A stretch of 16,000 nt of DNA. It comes from Planctomycetota bacterium (GTDB lineage Bacteria; Planctomycetota; Phycisphaerae; Phycisphaerales; Phycisphaeraceae). The stretch covers positions 30,762 to 46,761 of the forward strand of contig JBCDKD010000007.1 in the NCBI GenBank assembly GCA_039024275.1, given 5' to 3'. The first letter of the stretch is position 1. Every line of letters starts with the position of its first letter. Below the pieces are notes generated by a model. That model made no database searches. It had not been told where the DNA came from and saw only the letters and a list, made by a program, of their open reading frames with translations. The translations under genes were made by a program, and so were the position numbers. Shown piece by piece: positions 3,155-15,251 of this stretch.

Positions 3155-3239
3155 ATCCGGACCTTCGCTGTGCTCAGGACCGGCTTCTCTGAGGTGTATC
3201 TACTAGGAAGCCGGTCCTGAGCGCAGCGAAGGTCCGGAT
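3155..3239. repeat. REP-like inverted doublet (REPIN-like), left: two 33-nt units in inverted orientation around a 19-nt spacer
   Basis: Unit 3155..3187 is ATCCGGACCTTCGCTGTGCTCAGGACCGGCTTC. Unit 3207..3239 is GAAGCCGGTCCTGAGCGCAGCGAAGGTCCGGAT. They are reverse complements with 1 mismatch that is G:U compatible. Each unit also folds on itself (CCGGNCC ... GGNCCGG). The doublet starts 33 nt after the Gfo/Idh/MocA stop, so it could also act as a terminator or mRNA-stabilising hairpin. Confidence 0.9.
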
Positions 3240-3262
3240 GGTTTGTCCATTAAACTGATGTG

Positions 3263-3862
3263 ATGTCTTTCGAGAATTACTGCTGGTGGCACCTCATCCT
3301 CACCTGCCGCGGCCAGTGGCTCCCGGGCGACCCGCGCGGCTTCCGTTCTCGTGAGCACCGCGTCCACAGCAGCGGCGACTACAAAAGCCGTCCACCGCAA
3401 GGCGAACACGCCGGGCTGCACGCGTATCAGCAGGTTCGAAGCAACGAACCGGTCGAAGTCCCGCAAGAGAGCAGGCCGGTTCTTGGTGAAGCGATTATTA
3501 ACAAGTGTGTCGCGACCGAAGCGCCTTGTTTGGTGATCGCTACGGGTCGGGCGCACACGCATTTATTGGCTGCCATGTTCAACGACTGGCAGCATGTCAA
3601 GAAGCAGGTTGGGCGATTGAAGCAGGCCGGCTCGCACGCGATCCGCGAGGCGTTGCCGGGTCGCGTGTGGGGGGATGGGGGAAAGCCGATCCGTGTAACA
3701 GATCAAGCGCATCAGAAAAACGTATTTCGATATATCTCGGAACACGCGCAACAAGAGGGGGCCTGGGTTTGGCGGTATGACGGTGAGGGTTCGGCGATCG
3801 ATCCGGGCCTTCGCTGCGCTCAGGCCCGGCTTCTGGAGAAGTTCTTGCAATCAAAATCGTGA
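3263..3862 (+). CDS. HUH/Y1 single-strand DNA transposase-like protein, REP-associated tyrosine transposase (RAYT / IS200-like Y1_Tnp superfamily)
   Basis: 199 aa from ATG 3263 (the track starts one GTG codon earlier, at 3260). N-terminal strand is WWHLILTCRGQWLPGDPRGF. The HUH motif is AHTHLL (H98-T99-H100, nt 3554..3562). This is followed by VGRLKQAGSHAIRE...VWGDGG..IRVTD and the catalytic-Tyr block VFRYISEHAQ (Y157, nt 3731..3733). That order matches the IS200/RAYT layout: HUH, then xGxxKxxxSxxxR, then LWxxxY/F, then YIxxN/H. The last roughly 20 codons are read-through into the right REP doublet (GLRCAQARLLEK...). Confidence 0.7.
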   Translation: MSFENYCWWHLILTCRGQWLPGDPRGFRSREHRVHSSGDYKSRPPQGEHAGLHAYQQVRSNEPVEVPQESRPVLGEAIINKCVATEAPCLVIATGRAHTHLLAAMFNDWQHVKKQVGRLKQAGSHAIREALPGRVWGDGGKPIRVTDQAHQKNVFRYISEHAQQEGAWVWRYDGEGSAIDPGLRCAQARLLEKFLQSKS

Positions 3863-3893
3863 AGCCGGTCCTGAGCGCAGCGAAGGCCCGGAT
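3801..3893. repeat. REP-like inverted doublet (REPIN-like), right: two 33-nt units of the same family around a 27-nt spacer
   Basis: Unit 3801..3833 is ATCCGGGCCTTCGCTGCGCTCAGGCCCGGCTTC. Unit 3861..3893 is GAAGCCGGTCCTGAGCGCAGCGAAGGCCCGGAT. They are reverse complements with 1 mismatch. They belong to the same family as 3155..3239, differing only at unit positions 7, 16 and 25. In unit 3801..3833, positions 7 and 25 are G and C, which makes the intra-unit 7-bp stem perfect (CCGGGCC/GGCCCGG). Confidence 0.9.
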
Positions 3894-3912
3894 CAAACAA
3901 TATTAAACAACC

Positions 3913-8208: not shown

Positions 8209-8231
8209 TGGGTTGATTGGAACTTGAAATA

Positions 8232-8297
8232 GCACCGCATATGAGTGCGGTGCCCGAGCCGTGTCATACTTTCGGGCACCGGATTCACATCCGGTGC
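8232..8297 (+). repeat. Two similar 22-nt hairpins (8-bp stems, 6-nt loops) between the lipoprotein gene and the symporter gene
   Basis: Hairpin 1 is 8232..8253, GCACCGCA-TATGAG-TGCGGTGC. Hairpin 2 is 8276..8297, GCACCGGA-TTCACA-TCCGGTGC. Both stems are perfect and share GCACCG...CGGTGC. The first begins 24 nt after the lipoprotein stop and the second ends 13 nt before the symporter ATG. Neither is followed by a T-run. Confidence 0.6.
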
Positions 8298-8310
8298 TGC
8301 TGACAGAGCC

Positions 8311-11126: not shown

Positions 11127-14100
11127 ATGCCCCGCGACCTTGCCCAATCCGCCGAGCTTATCAGCCAAGCGATGGTTGGCGATCGGCACCGCCTCCGCCG
11201 AAGGCTCCGCGCGATCGAGCAGGCTGCGGAGAACGGCAAGCCCTTCGGTCGAAGCCTCGGCAAGCTTCAAAACGCGTTGGACGAGTCGATCGCCCTACGC
11301 AAGCAACGCAGGGCCAACGCGCCGGCGGCGAGTCTGCCGGATGAGCTGCCGATCACCGCGCGTGCAGACGAGATCATGGACGCGGTCCGCGGTCACCAAG
11401 TGGTCGTCGTTGCGGGCGAGACCGGGTCGGGCAAGTCGACGCAGCTGCCCAAGCTGATGCTGCGGATGGGCCGTGGCGTCGATGGGCTGATCGGGCACAC
11501 CCAGCCCCGCCGGCTCGCAGCACGCTCGGTCGCGCAGCGCGTGGCCGACGAGTTGGGCTCGCCGCTCGGCCAGCACGTGGGCTACAAGGTCCGTTTCACG
11601 GACAAGACGAACCCGAAGACCTACATCAAGCTGATGACCGATGGTGTGTTGCTGGCCGAGGCGGCGCGCGACCGGTTCTTCGACAACTACGACACGCTGA
11701 TCATCGACGAGGCGCACGAGCGGTCGCTCAACATCGATTTCCTGCTCGGCCACCTCAGCCAGATCCTGCCCAAGCGCCCCGACCTGCGCGTGATCATCAC
11801 CTCGGCGACGATCGACACCCAGCGTTTTGCGGAGCACTTCGGCACCGCGACCCGTGACGGGCTCGAGCCTGCGCCGGTGATCGAGGTCTCCGGGCGGACC
11901 TACCCCGTCGAGGTGCGCTACCAGCCGATCGAGCCGGACGAGCACGGCGAGGCCGGCGACACCGCCGAGGCCGTGGCCCACGCGATCGGGGGGCTCGGTC
12001 GTCAAGGCGATGTGCTCGTCTTCATGCCGACGGAGCGCGACATCCGCGCGTGCTGCGGCCTGCTCGAGCGCCGCCAGCCCGGCAGCGAGGTCCTCCCGCT
12101 GTACGCCCGGCTCACCAACGCGCAGCAGCAGGCGATCTTCGCCAAGAGCAGCAAGCGCAAGATCGTCGTTGCGACAAACGTGGCCGAGTCATCGCTGACC
12201 GTGCCGGGCATCCGCTACGTCGTGGACACGGGCACGGCGCGGGTGGCCCGGTACTCGCCGAACTCGAAGGTGCAGCGGCTCCCGGTCGAGGCGGTCAGCC
12301 GGGCCAGCTGCGACCAGCGCAAGGGCCGGTGCGGCCGCGTCGGCCCGGGCTTATGCGTGCGGCTCTACTCGGAAGAGGACTTCCTGTCGCGGGACGAGTT
12401 CACGACGCCGGAGATCCTGCGTAGCAACCTGGCGAGCGTGATCCTGCAGATCGAGACGCTGCGGTTTGGTGCGATCCAAGACTTCCCGTTTATCGACCCG
12501 CCCCGGCCGAGCATGATGCGCGATGGGTATAAGACGCTTCACGAGATCGGCGCGTTGACAGCGGATGACTCGGTCAGCGCGCTGGGCAGGCGGCTCTCGC
12601 GCATGCCGGTCGACCCGCGTGTCGCGCGGATGGTCTTGGCAGGCAAGGACGAAGGCGTGTTACAGGAGGTGCTGGTCATCGCCTCGGCGCTGGAGGTGCA
12701 GGACCCGCGTGAGAGGCCGATCGATCAGCAGGGCAAGGCCGACGCCGCGCACGAGCCGTTCGCAGACCCCCGCAGCGACTTCCTGGCGTACCTCAACCTC
12801 TGGTCCTTCTACCACAGACAGAAAGACAAGCTCTCGCACAACAAGCTGAGGAAGGCCTGCAAGCAGAACTATCTTAGTTACGTAAGGATGCGCGAGTGGG
12901 TGGATGTGCATCAGCAGTTGAAGAGGATGGTGCAGGAATTGAAAGTGGGGCAGACATTCCTGTCTGCCTCAGGCCGTAGGCCTGAACACAAGAAGGGTTC
13001 GGCTGCGCCGAACGGCAGACAGGAATGTCTGCCCCACGCTGCTGAGATCACGGACAGTAAAGCCGACGCGATCCACCGCGCGCTCCTGACCGGGCTGCTC
13101 TCCAACATCGCGAACAAGGGCGACGGCTTCGAATACACTGGGGCCGGCGGTCAGAAGCTGCACCTCTGGCCCGGCTCGTCGCTGTTCGCAAGCAAGCCCA
13201 AGTGGGTCGTTGCCGCAGAGCTGGTCGAGACGACCCGGCGGTATGCCCGCACGGCCGGGCGGATCCAGCCCGGCGTGATCGAGCCGATCGCGGGGCACCT
13301 GGTCAAGAAGACGCACAGCGACCCGCGCTGGGTGCGCGAGACTGGCTCGGCGATGTGCAGCGAGAAGGTCTCGCTCTACGGGCTCGTGCTCGTGCACGCC
13401 AGGCCGGTCCCCCTCGCGCGGGTCAACCCTACCGAGGCGAGGCAGATGTTCATCCAACGCGCGCTGGTCGAGGGCGACTGGGACTGCGACCTGCCGTTCT
13501 ACAAACACAACCAGGCGTTGTTGGAACAAGCCAAGGCGACCGAGGCCAAAGCACGCCGGCACGGGCTGGTCGCATCGGATCAGGTGCGCTACGCCTTCTA
13601 CGACGAACGCCTCCCCGAGACGGTCACCGACAGCGCGGCTTTCAAGAAGTGGTACAAGAAAGCCCACCCCTCTCCCCCCGGGGGAGGGGCCGGGGGTGAG
13701 GGGCGAGGCTCGGTCGAGACAGCGGATCGAAGAAAATCGGATCCTTCCGATTCGCCCCTCACCCCAGCCCTCTCCCGTGGGGAGAGGGGGCAAGACCCAT
13801 CAGAACCGCTGTACATGGACCTGCCGATGCTGCTCGCAGAGTCGGCGGAGGATGTCACCGAGCAGGCGTACCCCGACCGCTTGCGCGTCGAGCAGTCGGA
13901 CCACGCCCTCGCCTACACCTTCGACCCCGGCGACGAGCGCGACGGTTTAACCCTGACGCTGCCGCGCGAAGCGCTTGGCCAACTCGATGCGCGGCGGCTG
14001 GGCTGGCTGGTGCCCGGCATGCTCGAGCAGAAGCTGGTCGCGATGATCAAGTCGCTGCCGAAGCCGTTGCGCAAAACCCTGAGCCCGGCACCGGACGCGG

Positions 14101-15251
14101 CGAGGCGGGCGGTGCAAGCGATGCGCTTCGGTGACGGCCCGTTCGAAGACGCCGCCGCCCAAGCGCTCAGCAAGATCGGCGGGCTGAACCTCTCCGTATC
14201 GGATTTTGACTTAAGCGTTTTGCCCGATGCGTTCCGGATGAATGTCCGGGTGCTTGGCAAGCAGGGCCAGACGCTGGCGGAAGGGCGCGACATCAACAAG
14301 GTCCGTCGCAAGCTCGGCGCCGGGGCGCTGCCGAGCTACGCGGGGATGGACGATCCGCGCTGGGGCGCATCACCAACAACCCGCTGGTCCTTCGGCGAGT
14401 TGCCCAAGCACGTCGATACGACACGCAGCGGGGTTGAGCTCCGCGCGTACCCCGCGCTGATCGATGAGGCCGCGGGCGTCGCGCTGCGCCTGGTCGACAC
14501 GCGCGCCAAAGCCCGCCGGCTCACACGCGCGGGCCTGCGTCGGTTGTACTCGTTCGAGGTGCAGCGCGACTTCGCCTGGCGGGCCGACCGCTGGCAGGAC
14601 ATCGACAAGGCCCGGTTGTGGTTTGCACCGATCGGCGACCCGACGAATCTTAAGGATCAACTCGTGCTGCTGATGACCGATCGCGCGTTCCTGTTTGATA
14701 AAGAGGAAATCACGGGCGAGCAGGCGTTCATCACACGGCAGCGCATCGGGCTGCAGCGGCTCGACCTCGCCGAGCGGGAAGTGCAGCGCGTCGTCGGACC
14801 GGTACTGCAGTCGGCCCAGCGTGCAAGGCTTGCAGTGGAGCGTGCCGATTTCCGACAGGCACCGCACCTCAAAGCCGATGTGCGCATCCAGTTAGACAAT
14901 CTGTTGTCGCCGTCGTTTTTCGTTGAAACGCCGTGGACCCGCCTGGCGTCCTACCCCCGCTATTTGGCGGCGGTCGAGCGTCGACTCGACAAGCTGCATC
15001 GTGGCGATGCGTCGCAGGATGTGGCTGCTTTTAAAGTGATCGCGGAGCATTGGAACCGGTATGCAACAACAGCCAGCGCACTACGCGAGCAAGGCGGGGT
15101 CGACCCCGAGTTGGAGCAGTACCGGTGGCTGATCGAAGAGTTCCGCGTGTCGCTGTTTGCCCAGGAGCTGGGCACGAGCGAGAAGGTCTCGCCCCAGCGG
15201 CTCGATCGGCAGTGGGAGAAGGTCACGGGCAAGCCGCTCGGCGGCGGATGA
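11127..15251 (+). CDS. hrpA: ATP-dependent RNA helicase HrpA (DEAH/RHA family) carrying two in-frame palindromic-element insertions
   Basis: 1374-aa ORF. Helicase motifs: GETGSGKSTQLPK (Walker A), IIDEAHERS (DEAH), TSATID, ATNVAESSLTVPG and QRKGRCGRV (motif VI). An HA2/OB region follows (ILRSNLASVILQ; ELVETTRRY). The long HrpA-specific C-terminal region includes KSLPKPLRK and ends with RWLIEEFRVSLFAQELGT. It is co-linear with E. coli HrpA (1300 aa) from the N-terminal coiled region to the end. Confidence 0.95.
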   Translation: MPRDLAQSAELISQAMVGDRHRLRRRLRAIEQAAENGKPFGRSLGKLQNALDESIALRKQRRANAPAASLPDELPITARADEIMDAVRGHQVVVVAGETGSGKSTQLPKLMLRMGRGVDGLIGHTQPRRLAARSVAQRVADELGSPLGQHVGYKVRFTDKTNPKTYIKLMTDGVLLAEAARDRFFDNYDTLIIDEAHERSLNIDFLLGHLSQILPKRPDLRVIITSATIDTQRFAEHFGTATRDGLEPAPVIEVSGRTYPVEVRYQPIEPDEHGEAGDTAEAVAHAIGGLGRQGDVLVFMPTERDIRACCGLLERRQPGSEVLPLYARLTNAQQQAIFAKSSKRKIVVATNVAESSLTVPGIRYVVDTGTARVARYSPNSKVQRLPVEAVSRASCDQRKGRCGRVGPGLCVRLYSEEDFLSRDEFTTPEILRSNLASVILQIETLRFGAIQDFPFIDPPRPSMMRDGYKTLHEIGALTADDSVSALGRRLSRMPVDPRVARMVLAGKDEGVLQEVLVIASALEVQDPRERPIDQQGKADAAHEPFADPRSDFLAYLNLWSFYHRQKDKLSHNKLRKACKQNYLSYVRMREWVDVHQQLKRMVQELKVGQTFLSASGRRPEHKKGSAAPNGRQECLPHAAEITDSKADAIHRALLTGLLSNIANKGDGFEYTGAGGQKLHLWPGSSLFASKPKWVVAAELVETTRRYARTAGRIQPGVIEPIAGHLVKKTHSDPRWVRETGSAMCSEKVSLYGLVLVHARPVPLARVNPTEARQMFIQRALVEGDWDCDLPFYKHNQALLEQAKATEAKARRHGLVASDQVRYAFYDERLPETVTDSAAFKKWYKKAHPSPPGGGAGGEGRGSVETADRRKSDPSDSPLTPALSRGERGQDPSEPLYMDLPMLLAESAEDVTEQAYPDRLRVEQSDHALAYTFDPGDERDGLTLTLPREALGQLDARRLGWLVPGMLEQKLVAMIKSLPKPLRKTLSPAPDAARRAVQAMRFGDGPFEDAAAQALSKIGGLNLSVSDFDLSVLPDAFRMNVRVLGKQGQTLAEGRDINKVRRKLGAGALPSYAGMDDPRWGASPTTRWSFGELPKHVDTTRSGVELRAYPALIDEAAGVALRLVDTRAKARRLTRAGLRRLYSFEVQRDFAWRADRWQDIDKARLWFAPIGDPTNLKDQLVLLMTDRAFLFDKEEITGEQAFITRQRIGLQRLDLAEREVQRVVGPVLQSAQRARLAVERADFRQAPHLKADVRIQLDNLLSPSFFVETPWTRLASYPRYLAAVERRLDKLHRGDASQDVAAFKVIAEHWNRYATTASALREQGGVDPELEQYRWLIEEFRVSLFAQELGTSEKVSPQRLDRQWEKVTGKPLGGG
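12945..13037. repeat. 93-nt palindromic element (perfect 24-bp terminal inverted repeats with nested inner palindromes) inside hrpA, in frame
   Basis: 12945..12968 is GTGGGGCAGACATTCCTGTCTGCC. 13014..13037 is GGCAGACAGGAATGTCTGCCCCAC, its exact reverse complement. The 45-nt centre contains AGGCCGTAGGCCT and GTTCGGCTGCGCCGAAC sub-palindromes. The element starts exactly at hrpA codon 607 and spans 31 codons (VGQTFLSASGRRPEHKKGSAAPNGRQECLPH). Confidence 0.9.
13667..13789. repeat. Nested G/C-rich palindromic element of about 123 nt inside hrpA, in frame
   Basis: The left half 13667..13706 (CCCCTCTCCCCCCGGGGGAGGGGCCGGGGGTGAGGGGCGA) is an imperfect inverted copy of the right half 13752..13789 (TCGCCCCTCACCCCAGCCCTCTCCCGTGGGGAGAGGGG). 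Local hairpins are CCCTCTCCC-GTG-GGGAGAGGG (13768..13788, perfect) and CCCCTCTCCCC-CCG-GGGGAGGGG. Arms 13688..13706 and 13752..13769 pair with each other. The centre contains ATCGGA-TCCT-TCCGAT. Translation is low-complexity: HPSPPGGGAGGEGRGSVETADRRKSDPSDSPLTPALSRGERG. Boundaries are good to about +/-5 nt. Confidence 0.8.

Follow-up and report, generated by a model that had tools for sequence, protein, structure and literature searches.

Repetitive extragenic palindromic sequences (REPs) of the GTAG-tagged superfamily are defined by a conserved GTAG-type head and a stem-loop of 6-9 bp, and they stand singly or as inverted dimers with 20-100 bp spacers (PMC3733652). GTGG is the common head form in the O. 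terrae GTAG-20 repeats (PMC3733652). GTAG- and CGTC-tagged REPs were also found within genes (Di Nocera, De Gregorio & Rocco 2013, BMC Genomics 14:522, PMC3733652), most abundantly in Opitutus terrae and Rickettsia conorii. In the same study dimers or grouped repeats, with 20-30 encoded amino acids, made up over half of the inserts within genes, repair and RNA-helicase genes were frequent hosts, and O. terrae HrpA (Oter_0009) appears in Additional file 3 with two REPs, at residues 662-668 and 1241-1248. Here a palindromic element of this kind, called element A, is described inside the hrpA gene of a planctomycetal genome. The window, that is the whole stretch of DNA that was analysed, comprises 16,000 nt of contig JBCDKD010000007.1 (positions 30,762 to 46,761 of the forward strand; assembly GCA_039024275.1; Planctomycetota, Phycisphaeraceae). 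Element A is most probably a REP dimer that has been kept by its host gene as a tolerated passenger.

The likeness of element A to the GTAG-tagged REPs of PMC3733652 lies in the unpaired GTAG-type head, the stem-loop of 6-9 bp, the inverted dimer, the occurrence in Planctomycetes and Verrucomicrobia, and the intragenic position of a minority of copies. The differences lie in sequence, the stem GGCAGACA/TGTCTGCC with the loop TTCC being missing among the sequences found in the supplementary files, and in architecture, since element A is a full dimer plus two inner hairpins. With the REPs of O. terrae HrpA the likeness is one at the level of the gene and does not imply that residues 662-668 match the loop occupied in the window. 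Inverted REP dimers were termed REPINs (Bertels & Rainey 2011, PMC3116915), and as described there and in PMC3337134 they resemble element A as inverted REPs that form one hairpin together with their spacer and are non-autonomous; their mobilisation is attributed to a single-copy RAYT whose gene has their repeats at its flanks, and the window has a RAYT-family gene between palindromic doublets of a different family. REPINs are described as extragenic, lineage-specific and vertically inherited, whereas element A is intragenic and predicted to be translated.

Rickettsia palindromic elements, as far as they are summarised in PMC3733652, are likewise palindromic, in frame and translated in many genes, including repair and RNA-related ones, where they form tolerated extra surface segments. 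They are CGTC-tagged or longer (RPE-1) and belong to Alphaproteobacteria, so that the resemblance is behavioural only and no membership is claimed. MITEs (short for miniature inverted-repeat transposable elements) within bacterial open reading frames are also small non-autonomous repeats that can add peptide segments to host proteins (reviewed in PMC10969869), and a Coxiella paper points to effects on proteins (PMC5896051), but MITEs carry terminal inverted repeats matching insertion sequences as well as target-site duplications, neither of which was seen for element A. Intragenic REP dimers, HrpA included, were already published in 2013 (PMC3733652), and the core phenomenon is therefore known; what appears to be new is this REP sequence, a single HrpA loop filled by at least six unrelated families, and an identical 24-mer in metagenome-assembled genomes assigned to at least ten phyla.

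Anatomy of element A and its site in hrpA

The host gene and the parts of element A are as follows.

11127-15251, plus strand: hrpA, an intact DEAH-box RNA helicase gene of 1374 codons, assigned by TIGR01967, Pfam and synteny
12945-13037, no strand assigned: element A, a 93-nt REP dimer of REPIN-type architecture, equal to hrpA codons 607-637
12945-12968, plus strand: left REP unit, with the head GTGG at 12945-12948 and the hairpin GGCAGACA-TTCC-TGTCTGCC at 12949-12968
12969-12985, no strand assigned: inner hairpin 1, TCAGGCC-GTA-GGCCTGA, 7 bp
12997-13013, no strand assigned: inner hairpin 2, GTTCGGC-TGC-GCCGAAC, 7 bp
13014-13037, minus strand: right REP unit, repeating the left one exactly in reverse complement, with the terminal CCAC at 13034-13037

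The two arms of element A measure 24 nt each, are 100% complementary and enclose a spacer of 45 nt; the 24-mer arm has only two matches across the window with up to 3 mismatches tolerated, against a shuffle expectation of 0.00. The RNA of the element is predicted to fold at -74.6 kcal/mol, compared with -37.8 +/- 3.8 for shuffles (z = -9.8), and in the minimum-free-energy structure the arms pair into one long hairpin. These results bear out the first-pass annotation, which had described exact 24-bp inverted repeats around 45 nt with two small palindromes, a length of 93 nt beginning at codon 607 without a stop, and a very stable mRNA hairpin, the first being found again at the same positions, the second by coordinate arithmetic and translation, and the third by the predicted fold. 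Absent from that annotation was the point on which the classification as REP is based, namely that each arm is a hairpin on its own, with an 8-bp stem and the 4-nt loop TTCC. With a GTGG head and an adjacent 8-bp stem-loop, each arm is by structure a REP of the GTAG-tagged superfamily, and as a pair of inverted REPs with a spacer that form one long hairpin element A also has the architecture of a REPIN. The core of inner hairpin 1, CAGGCCGTAGGCCTGA, is shared by the variant element that fills this place of hrpA in locus L122.

The junctions of element A read ...GAATTGAAA|GTGG...CCAC|GCTGCTGAG, and no target-site duplication was found, the flanks ...TTGAAA and GCTGCT... being without a direct repeat; none was seen either at the variant copies in L122 and L125. 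The label of a classical MITE is unfit because of this lack of a target-site duplication. The first-pass label of a MITE/REP-like element is accordingly kept in its REP-like half, for which the GTGG head, the hairpin arms and the dispersal described below speak, and dropped in the other.

Element A begins exactly at codon 607 (11127 + 606 x 3 = 12945) and runs through 31 stop-free codons encoding the peptide VGQTFLSASGRRPEHKKGSAAPNGRQECLPH, from which the insert and junction tryptic peptides VGQTFLSASGR and QECLPHAAEITDSK are predicted. Four of the six reading frames are open and the length equals 3 x 31 nt, so that most genic insertions of element A would preserve the frame, and its in-frame, stop-free state is less special than it appears. 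An Rfam search with element A gave no family match, and no intrinsic terminator was found on the sense strand of its region.

The HrpA protein of the window scores 1439.6 bits against TIGR01967 (cut-off 722.75), the first matched stretch stopping at residue 607, and has the full expected set of Pfam domains (DEAD, Helicase_C, HA2_C, OB_NTP_bind and DUF3418). E. coli HrpA (PDB 6ZWW) is matched over residues 430-790 of the protein with an E-value of 4.6e-96, and the order DUF179, hrpA, a hypothetical gene, ResB and CcsA is kept in orthologous loci. In E. coli HrpA the ratchet helix spans residues 588-607 and the helical-bundle domain 498-630 (PMC8325345). Because the helix before the insert aligns to the E. 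coli ratchet helix, the alignment places element A in the loop after that helix, inside the helical-bundle domain and shortly before the OB domain. Residue 607 aligns to E. coli residue 612 and residue 648 to 623, leaving 40 residues unaligned here and 10 in E. coli. An AlphaFold2 model of residues 430-790 renders the insert as coil, with a predicted local distance difference test score (pLDDT) below 50, between the helices 585-604 and 643-660; the backing for the loop placement from this model is modest because the model is poor in the OB part.

From VKEL to EIHIALL the span is 12 residues in E. coli (6ZWW) and 42 here, or 11 without element A. The lengths of 15 and 14 residues given in the first-pass annotation thus need correction, while its statement that the extra length equals the length of the element holds. 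It had further placed the insert in a surface linker between HA2 and OB; the surface loop agrees with the modelled coil between two helices and with the gap in the 6ZWW alignment, but the position is within the helical bundle rather than strictly at the HA2/OB boundary.

Recurrent filling of the loop in planctomycetal HrpA

Alignment was made of 33 HrpA homologues with 48-98% identity, mostly from Phycisphaerae-like metagenome-assembled genomes (MAGs), and DNA was compared for eight orthologous hrpA loci with conserved synteny (P and L numbers denote the proteins and loci compared). The 31 residues are missing from many HrpA: short, non-palindromic linkers are present in P0005, P0007-P0011, P0016, P0017 and P0020, several of which are 70-83% identical to the HrpA of the window, and the linker DNA folds no better than shuffles in P0005 (z = 0.9) and P0007 (z = 0.0). 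Among 120 planctomycetal HrpA the modal linker is 21 residues; that of E. coli has 22, and the ground state in Planctomycetia is 21-22. When insertions of at least 12 extra residues were called in the same 120 proteins, 47 fell at this loop and at most 7 at any other site, so across the phylum HrpA varies in length, by alignment, chiefly at the loop after the ratchet helix. In an independent assembly, GCA_039025495.1 (L124), an hrpA that is 97.5% identical carries the same 93 nt at the same codon. Extra conservation of element A was not significant in this pair, with 0 differences between the window and L124 against about 2.3 expected (P about 0.1).

The loop is occupied as follows.

Window and P0022: type A
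P0015 and P0019 (DNA), P0004 (peptide): variant A', GTAG-GACAGGCA-TTCC-TGCCTGTC
P0002 and P0012 (DNA), P0003, P0006 and probably P0013 (peptides), with a degenerate copy in P0095: type B, CCCCTCTCCCC/GGGGAGAGGGG
P0001, from the lineage sister to that of the window: type C, an inverted repeat of 26 nt without a mismatch
P0077 and P0085: two further families with 25-bp stems
L120 11868-11964, L172 about 2295-2380, L173 about 2395-2465 and L174 2295-2567, from other Planctomycetota: unrelated elements with 25-30-bp stems

Variant A' differs from the arm of the window by paired changes that preserve the stem, and unrelated palindromic elements fill the loop in L120, L123, L126, L172, L173 and L174. 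As typed here, at least six unrelated palindromic families are found at this one loop. In a neighbour-joining tree the states of the loop are patchy, and the left junctions vary by 0-5 codons among lineages, which points to repeated independent insertion events. Throughout about 125 kb of compared loci, the elements outside hrpA are intergenic, except for one that overlaps the 3' end of a gene.

Dispersal, other host genes and the RAYT-family gene

When the 20-mer hairpin was scanned for in one genome per species (596 Gb), at least 147 copies were found in at least 119 genome loci, where about 1 match was expected by chance according to an estimate made in this analysis. Among the 147 copies listed, 112 have GTGG directly in front of the hairpin and 8 have GTAG, 18 exact inverted doublets occur among the matches listed, the rest being single or with diverged partners, and 17 of the 119 loci listed derive from one Planctomycetaceae MAG, CAWGNG01. 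A metagenome scan for inverted doublets with 30-60 nt spacers gave 44 loci with the order GTGG-REP, small hairpin, spacer, small hairpin, REP'-CCAC and a length of 86-108 nt, most commonly 94; a related subfamily of 94-nt doublets, whose inner hairpins are conserved, recurs at several distinct metagenome loci, and the spacers between the arms vary freely in sequence and length. The 24-mer is thus no peculiarity of this locus, as the MITE/REP-like label of the first-pass annotation had anticipated, although the copies are documented in other genomes and the window itself carries one dimer only.

The identical 24-mer, GTGG-GGCAGACATTCCTGTCTGCC, was found in MAGs assigned to at least ten phyla. 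Their labels include Planctomycetota, Latescibacterota, Hydrogenedentota, Verrucomicrobiota, Lentisphaerae, Gemmatimonadota, Ktedonobacterales, Acidobacteria, Ignavibacteria, Nitrospirales and others. Some mis-binning may lie behind part of this cross-phylum spread. Latescibacterota carriers include closed chromosomes, and there ...GAGGAAGCCG..TGTGAGG is conserved before the GTGG-GGCAGACATTCCTGTCTGCC unit. A viral or plasmid vector was considered and rejected: of 2.9 million viral contigs 3 contain the 24-mer, and no plasmid matched the 93-mer. As a separate observation, locus L140 has at 3332-3475 an array of at least four head-to-tail 20-nt REP hairpins with an identical 9-nt spacer, CGAAACAGA, and a 29-nt period; it terminates in an inverted unit, an organisation unlike the usual doublets.

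By a crude test, which looked for a spanning open frame and an excess of third-position GC in the flanks, 23 of 178 REP clusters are intragenic candidates, a crude estimate of about 13%. Pfam confirmed host genes for about 10 of the 23, namely those for a SNF2 helicase, a histidine kinase, UDPGP, ThiD2-ThiE, iPGM, MnmA, TilS, a PMT glycosyltransferase, a WD40 protein and a TPR protein, the last with two REP inserts. The reading frame of the REP differs among these hosts (VGQTFLSA, GGADIPVC, GRQECLPH and others), which indicates that the encoded peptide is not under selection as such. Beside these, 1-2 in-frame REP dimers were noticed in loops of membrane glycosyltransferase or TPR proteins at L096 100-2241 (minus strand) and at about 6040-6134 in L148 and L159. 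A 47-aa artificial query with the encoded peptide gave four weak protein matches and missed P0022, and this search is unsuited to a census.

The window holds further features related to palindromic repeats.

3155-3239, no strand assigned: type-D palindromic doublet directly upstream of the RAYT-family gene, 33-nt arms, 97% complementary
3263-3862, plus strand: gene for a RAYT-family Y1 (HUH) tyrosine transposase of 199 aa, assigned by homologue names, motifs and fold
3800-3894, no strand assigned: type-D palindromic doublet over the last 20 or so RAYT codons, 34-nt arms, 97% complementary
8231-8298, no strand assigned: type-E palindromic element, intergenic, upstream of an SSF transporter gene, 27-nt arms, 85% complementary
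13665-13793, no strand assigned: element B, a second in-frame hrpA insertion of 43 codons, HPSPPGGGAGGEGRG...PLTPALSRGERGQ

Homologues of the product of 3263-3862 are named 'REP element-mobilizing transposase RayT' (JGI/UniRef). The Pfam family Y1_Tnp is matched by 25 of 40 family members, the protein of the window itself lying below the threshold (E 0.073, 13.6 bits vs 23), and the HxH motif (H98, H100) and Y157 are invariant in 40 homologues. Compared with PDB structures, the fold of the AlphaFold2 model of this protein (pLDDT 88.4) comes closest to 4ER8, in which TnpA-REP of E. coli is bound to a REP hairpin (E 1.9e-4, probability 1.00, TM-scores 0.43/0.51), followed by the TnpA proteins of IS608 and ISDra2. 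Judged by homology, the source genome encodes the enzyme class thought to mobilise REPs. The position of the gene between doublets at 3155-3894 corresponds to the 'REPtron' layout of PMC3733652; the protein tail, IDPGLRCAQARLLEKFLQSKS*, is read from the left arm of the doublet at 3800-3894, and in L120 the RAYT orthologue has an orthologous type-D copy on its upstream side. Among the compared loci, type D occurs only beside the RAYT gene of the window and this orthologue.

Element B belongs to a family unrelated to type A (CCCCTCTCCCC / GGGGAGAGGGG / GGGGTGAGGGG, type B), has 39-nt arms that are 82% complementary, and is predicted to fold as RNA at -96.8 kcal/mol (z -9.9). Its site is empty in most orthologues and filled in P0022, P0002 and P0003, and the same family is also present at the site of element A in P0002, P0003, P0006, P0012 and probably P0013 (peptide only). 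A known RNA family was considered for element B and rejected, Rfam having given only microRNA-precursor look-alikes far under the threshold. The type-E element is kept at the orthologous place in L120 (7228-7297) and L124 (3271-3338).

Origin of the insertion and its meaning

A mobile palindrome in a tolerant linker of HrpA is supported by these data. Two identical units, each with GTGG and an 8-bp stem with a 4-nt loop, and inverted with their heads outward around the 45-nt spacer, would constitute a REPIN that may have been mobilised as a single-stranded hairpin by a RAYT-type Y1 (HUH) transposase. The hrpA copy would have inserted just past the ratchet helix, into a loop of the helical-bundle domain, where the reading frame is preserved because element A is 3 x 31 nt long and stop-free in four of the six frames; HrpA probably tolerates the 31 extra residues because the loop is disordered and variable in length, and the insertion would persist as a translated passenger. 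The hrpA mRNA would hold a stable hairpin of 24 consecutive perfect base pairs (about -75 kcal/mol), and as a side effect this hairpin could slow ribosomes or draw double-strand-specific RNases.

Several points weigh against a REP dimer carried in this manner. The RAYT-family gene of the window is flanked by type D repeats and not by type A. All open reading frames of 172 sequences (171 loci and the window, 1.27 Mb) were searched with motif regular expressions and phmmer, the queries being E. coli RAYT and IS200 TnpA sequences and then the RAYT-like protein of the window; within this 1.27 Mb no RAYT gene flanked by a type-A REP was found, and only the gene of the window and its L120 orthologue were recovered. 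A search of JGI metagenomes for the arm together with the inner hairpin of element A itself gave 0 matches, which bears on the replication of the exact 93-nt unit. Furthermore, the residual linker measures 19-24 residues in element-bearing alleles vs 30-36 in 'empty' alleles of the same clade; about 10 codons may have been removed per insertion, or the 'empty' alleles may hold unrecognisable remnants, so that something other than a plain insertion may have taken place. Finally, translation of the 31 residues and activity of the helicase with its insert are presumed from the intact frame.

Among the other explanations, a selected function survives best and is still unlikely: the hairpin or the 31-residue peptide would have been exapted, the structure in hrpA mRNA tuning expression and possibly being sensed by HrpA, or the loop altering the helicase. 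For it speak the recurrence of at least six unrelated hairpin-forming elements at one HrpA loop across Planctomycetota, the second insert (element B) within the same hrpA, the two REPs reported in O. terrae HrpA, the position of hrpA as the sole gene with internal elements in the 125 kb or so compared, and the extreme stability of the predicted RNA stem. However, close relatives are without any insert, inserts have decayed or been truncated in some lineages (P0003; P0095, at z = -3.5), and element-poor genomes have empty hrpA sites, such as L121 with no palindromic elements in 24 kb. The same REP stands in many unrelated genes in different frames, neither an Rfam family nor a sense-strand terminator was found, and tolerance together with a high flux of elements accounts for the pattern. 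The first-pass annotation had offered 'tolerated, or exapted'; toleration is retained, and exaptation is set aside in view of the several frames in which the same REP is read in other genes. Slightly less probable again is that repeats able to form hairpins land in this loop by preference or are selected for there; the stable RNA stem, supplied repeatedly by whatever palindromic family a genome has active, would then couple expression of this helicase, which serves ribosome rescue and RNA unwinding, to the activity of HrpA or RNase III, a reading suggested by the same filling of the loop by at least six families, the second insert, the O. terrae precedent, and the lack of internal elements in neighbour genes over about 125 kb.

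A classical MITE, which would have arisen by deletion from a DDE-type insertion sequence and would have a target-site duplication and terminal inverted repeats that the transposase recognises, is improbable. The small size of element A, its perfect terminal inverted repeats and its dispersal in genomes are as in a MITE, but its junctions are without a direct repeat and each 'terminal repeat' forms a hairpin of its own behind a GTGG head. Single units are far commoner than pairs (111 vs 18 exact doublets, among the matches listed), as suits REP units but not insertion-sequence ends, and the spacers between the arms are free in sequence and length.

It is more improbable still that there was no insertion, the 31 residues being ancestral and lost in other lineages and the palindromy incidental. 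The linker is indeed variable in length everywhere, and variants of the element stand in four separated branches (window/P0022, P0004, P0015 and P0019). Yet many genomes carry the 24-mer as a dispersed repeat, the linker has a ground state of 21-22 residues in Planctomycetia and E. coli, a different palindromic element fills the loop in the sister lineage P0001, and left junctions differing by 0-5 codons between lineages indicate separate events. An artefact of assembly or binning, in which a repeat was collapsed or mis-joined into the hrpA of a MAG, such repeats being classic sites of misassembly, is ruled out because in the independent assembly L124, from another sample, the same codon of hrpA is followed by exactly these 93 nt, and it is further opposed by the reading frame and flanking homology that run on at both sides and by the variants at the same site in other assemblies.

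Taken together, a REP dimer tolerated in a loop of HrpA is no field-changing result, and its meaning lies in three areas. For annotation, stretches such as VGQTFLSA...GRQECLPH or HPSPxGRGAGGEGRG...SRGERGQ in planctomycetal proteins are translated repeats and not domains, and such translated repeats can split profile matches, as the HrpA model match breaks at residue 607. For the biology of REPINs and RAYTs, an identical 24-mer in MAGs assigned to at least ten phyla fits poorly with a strictly vertical, lineage-specific view. For HrpA itself, the loop after the ratchet helix would seem from the alignments to be freely extendable, which may be useful for protein tagging.

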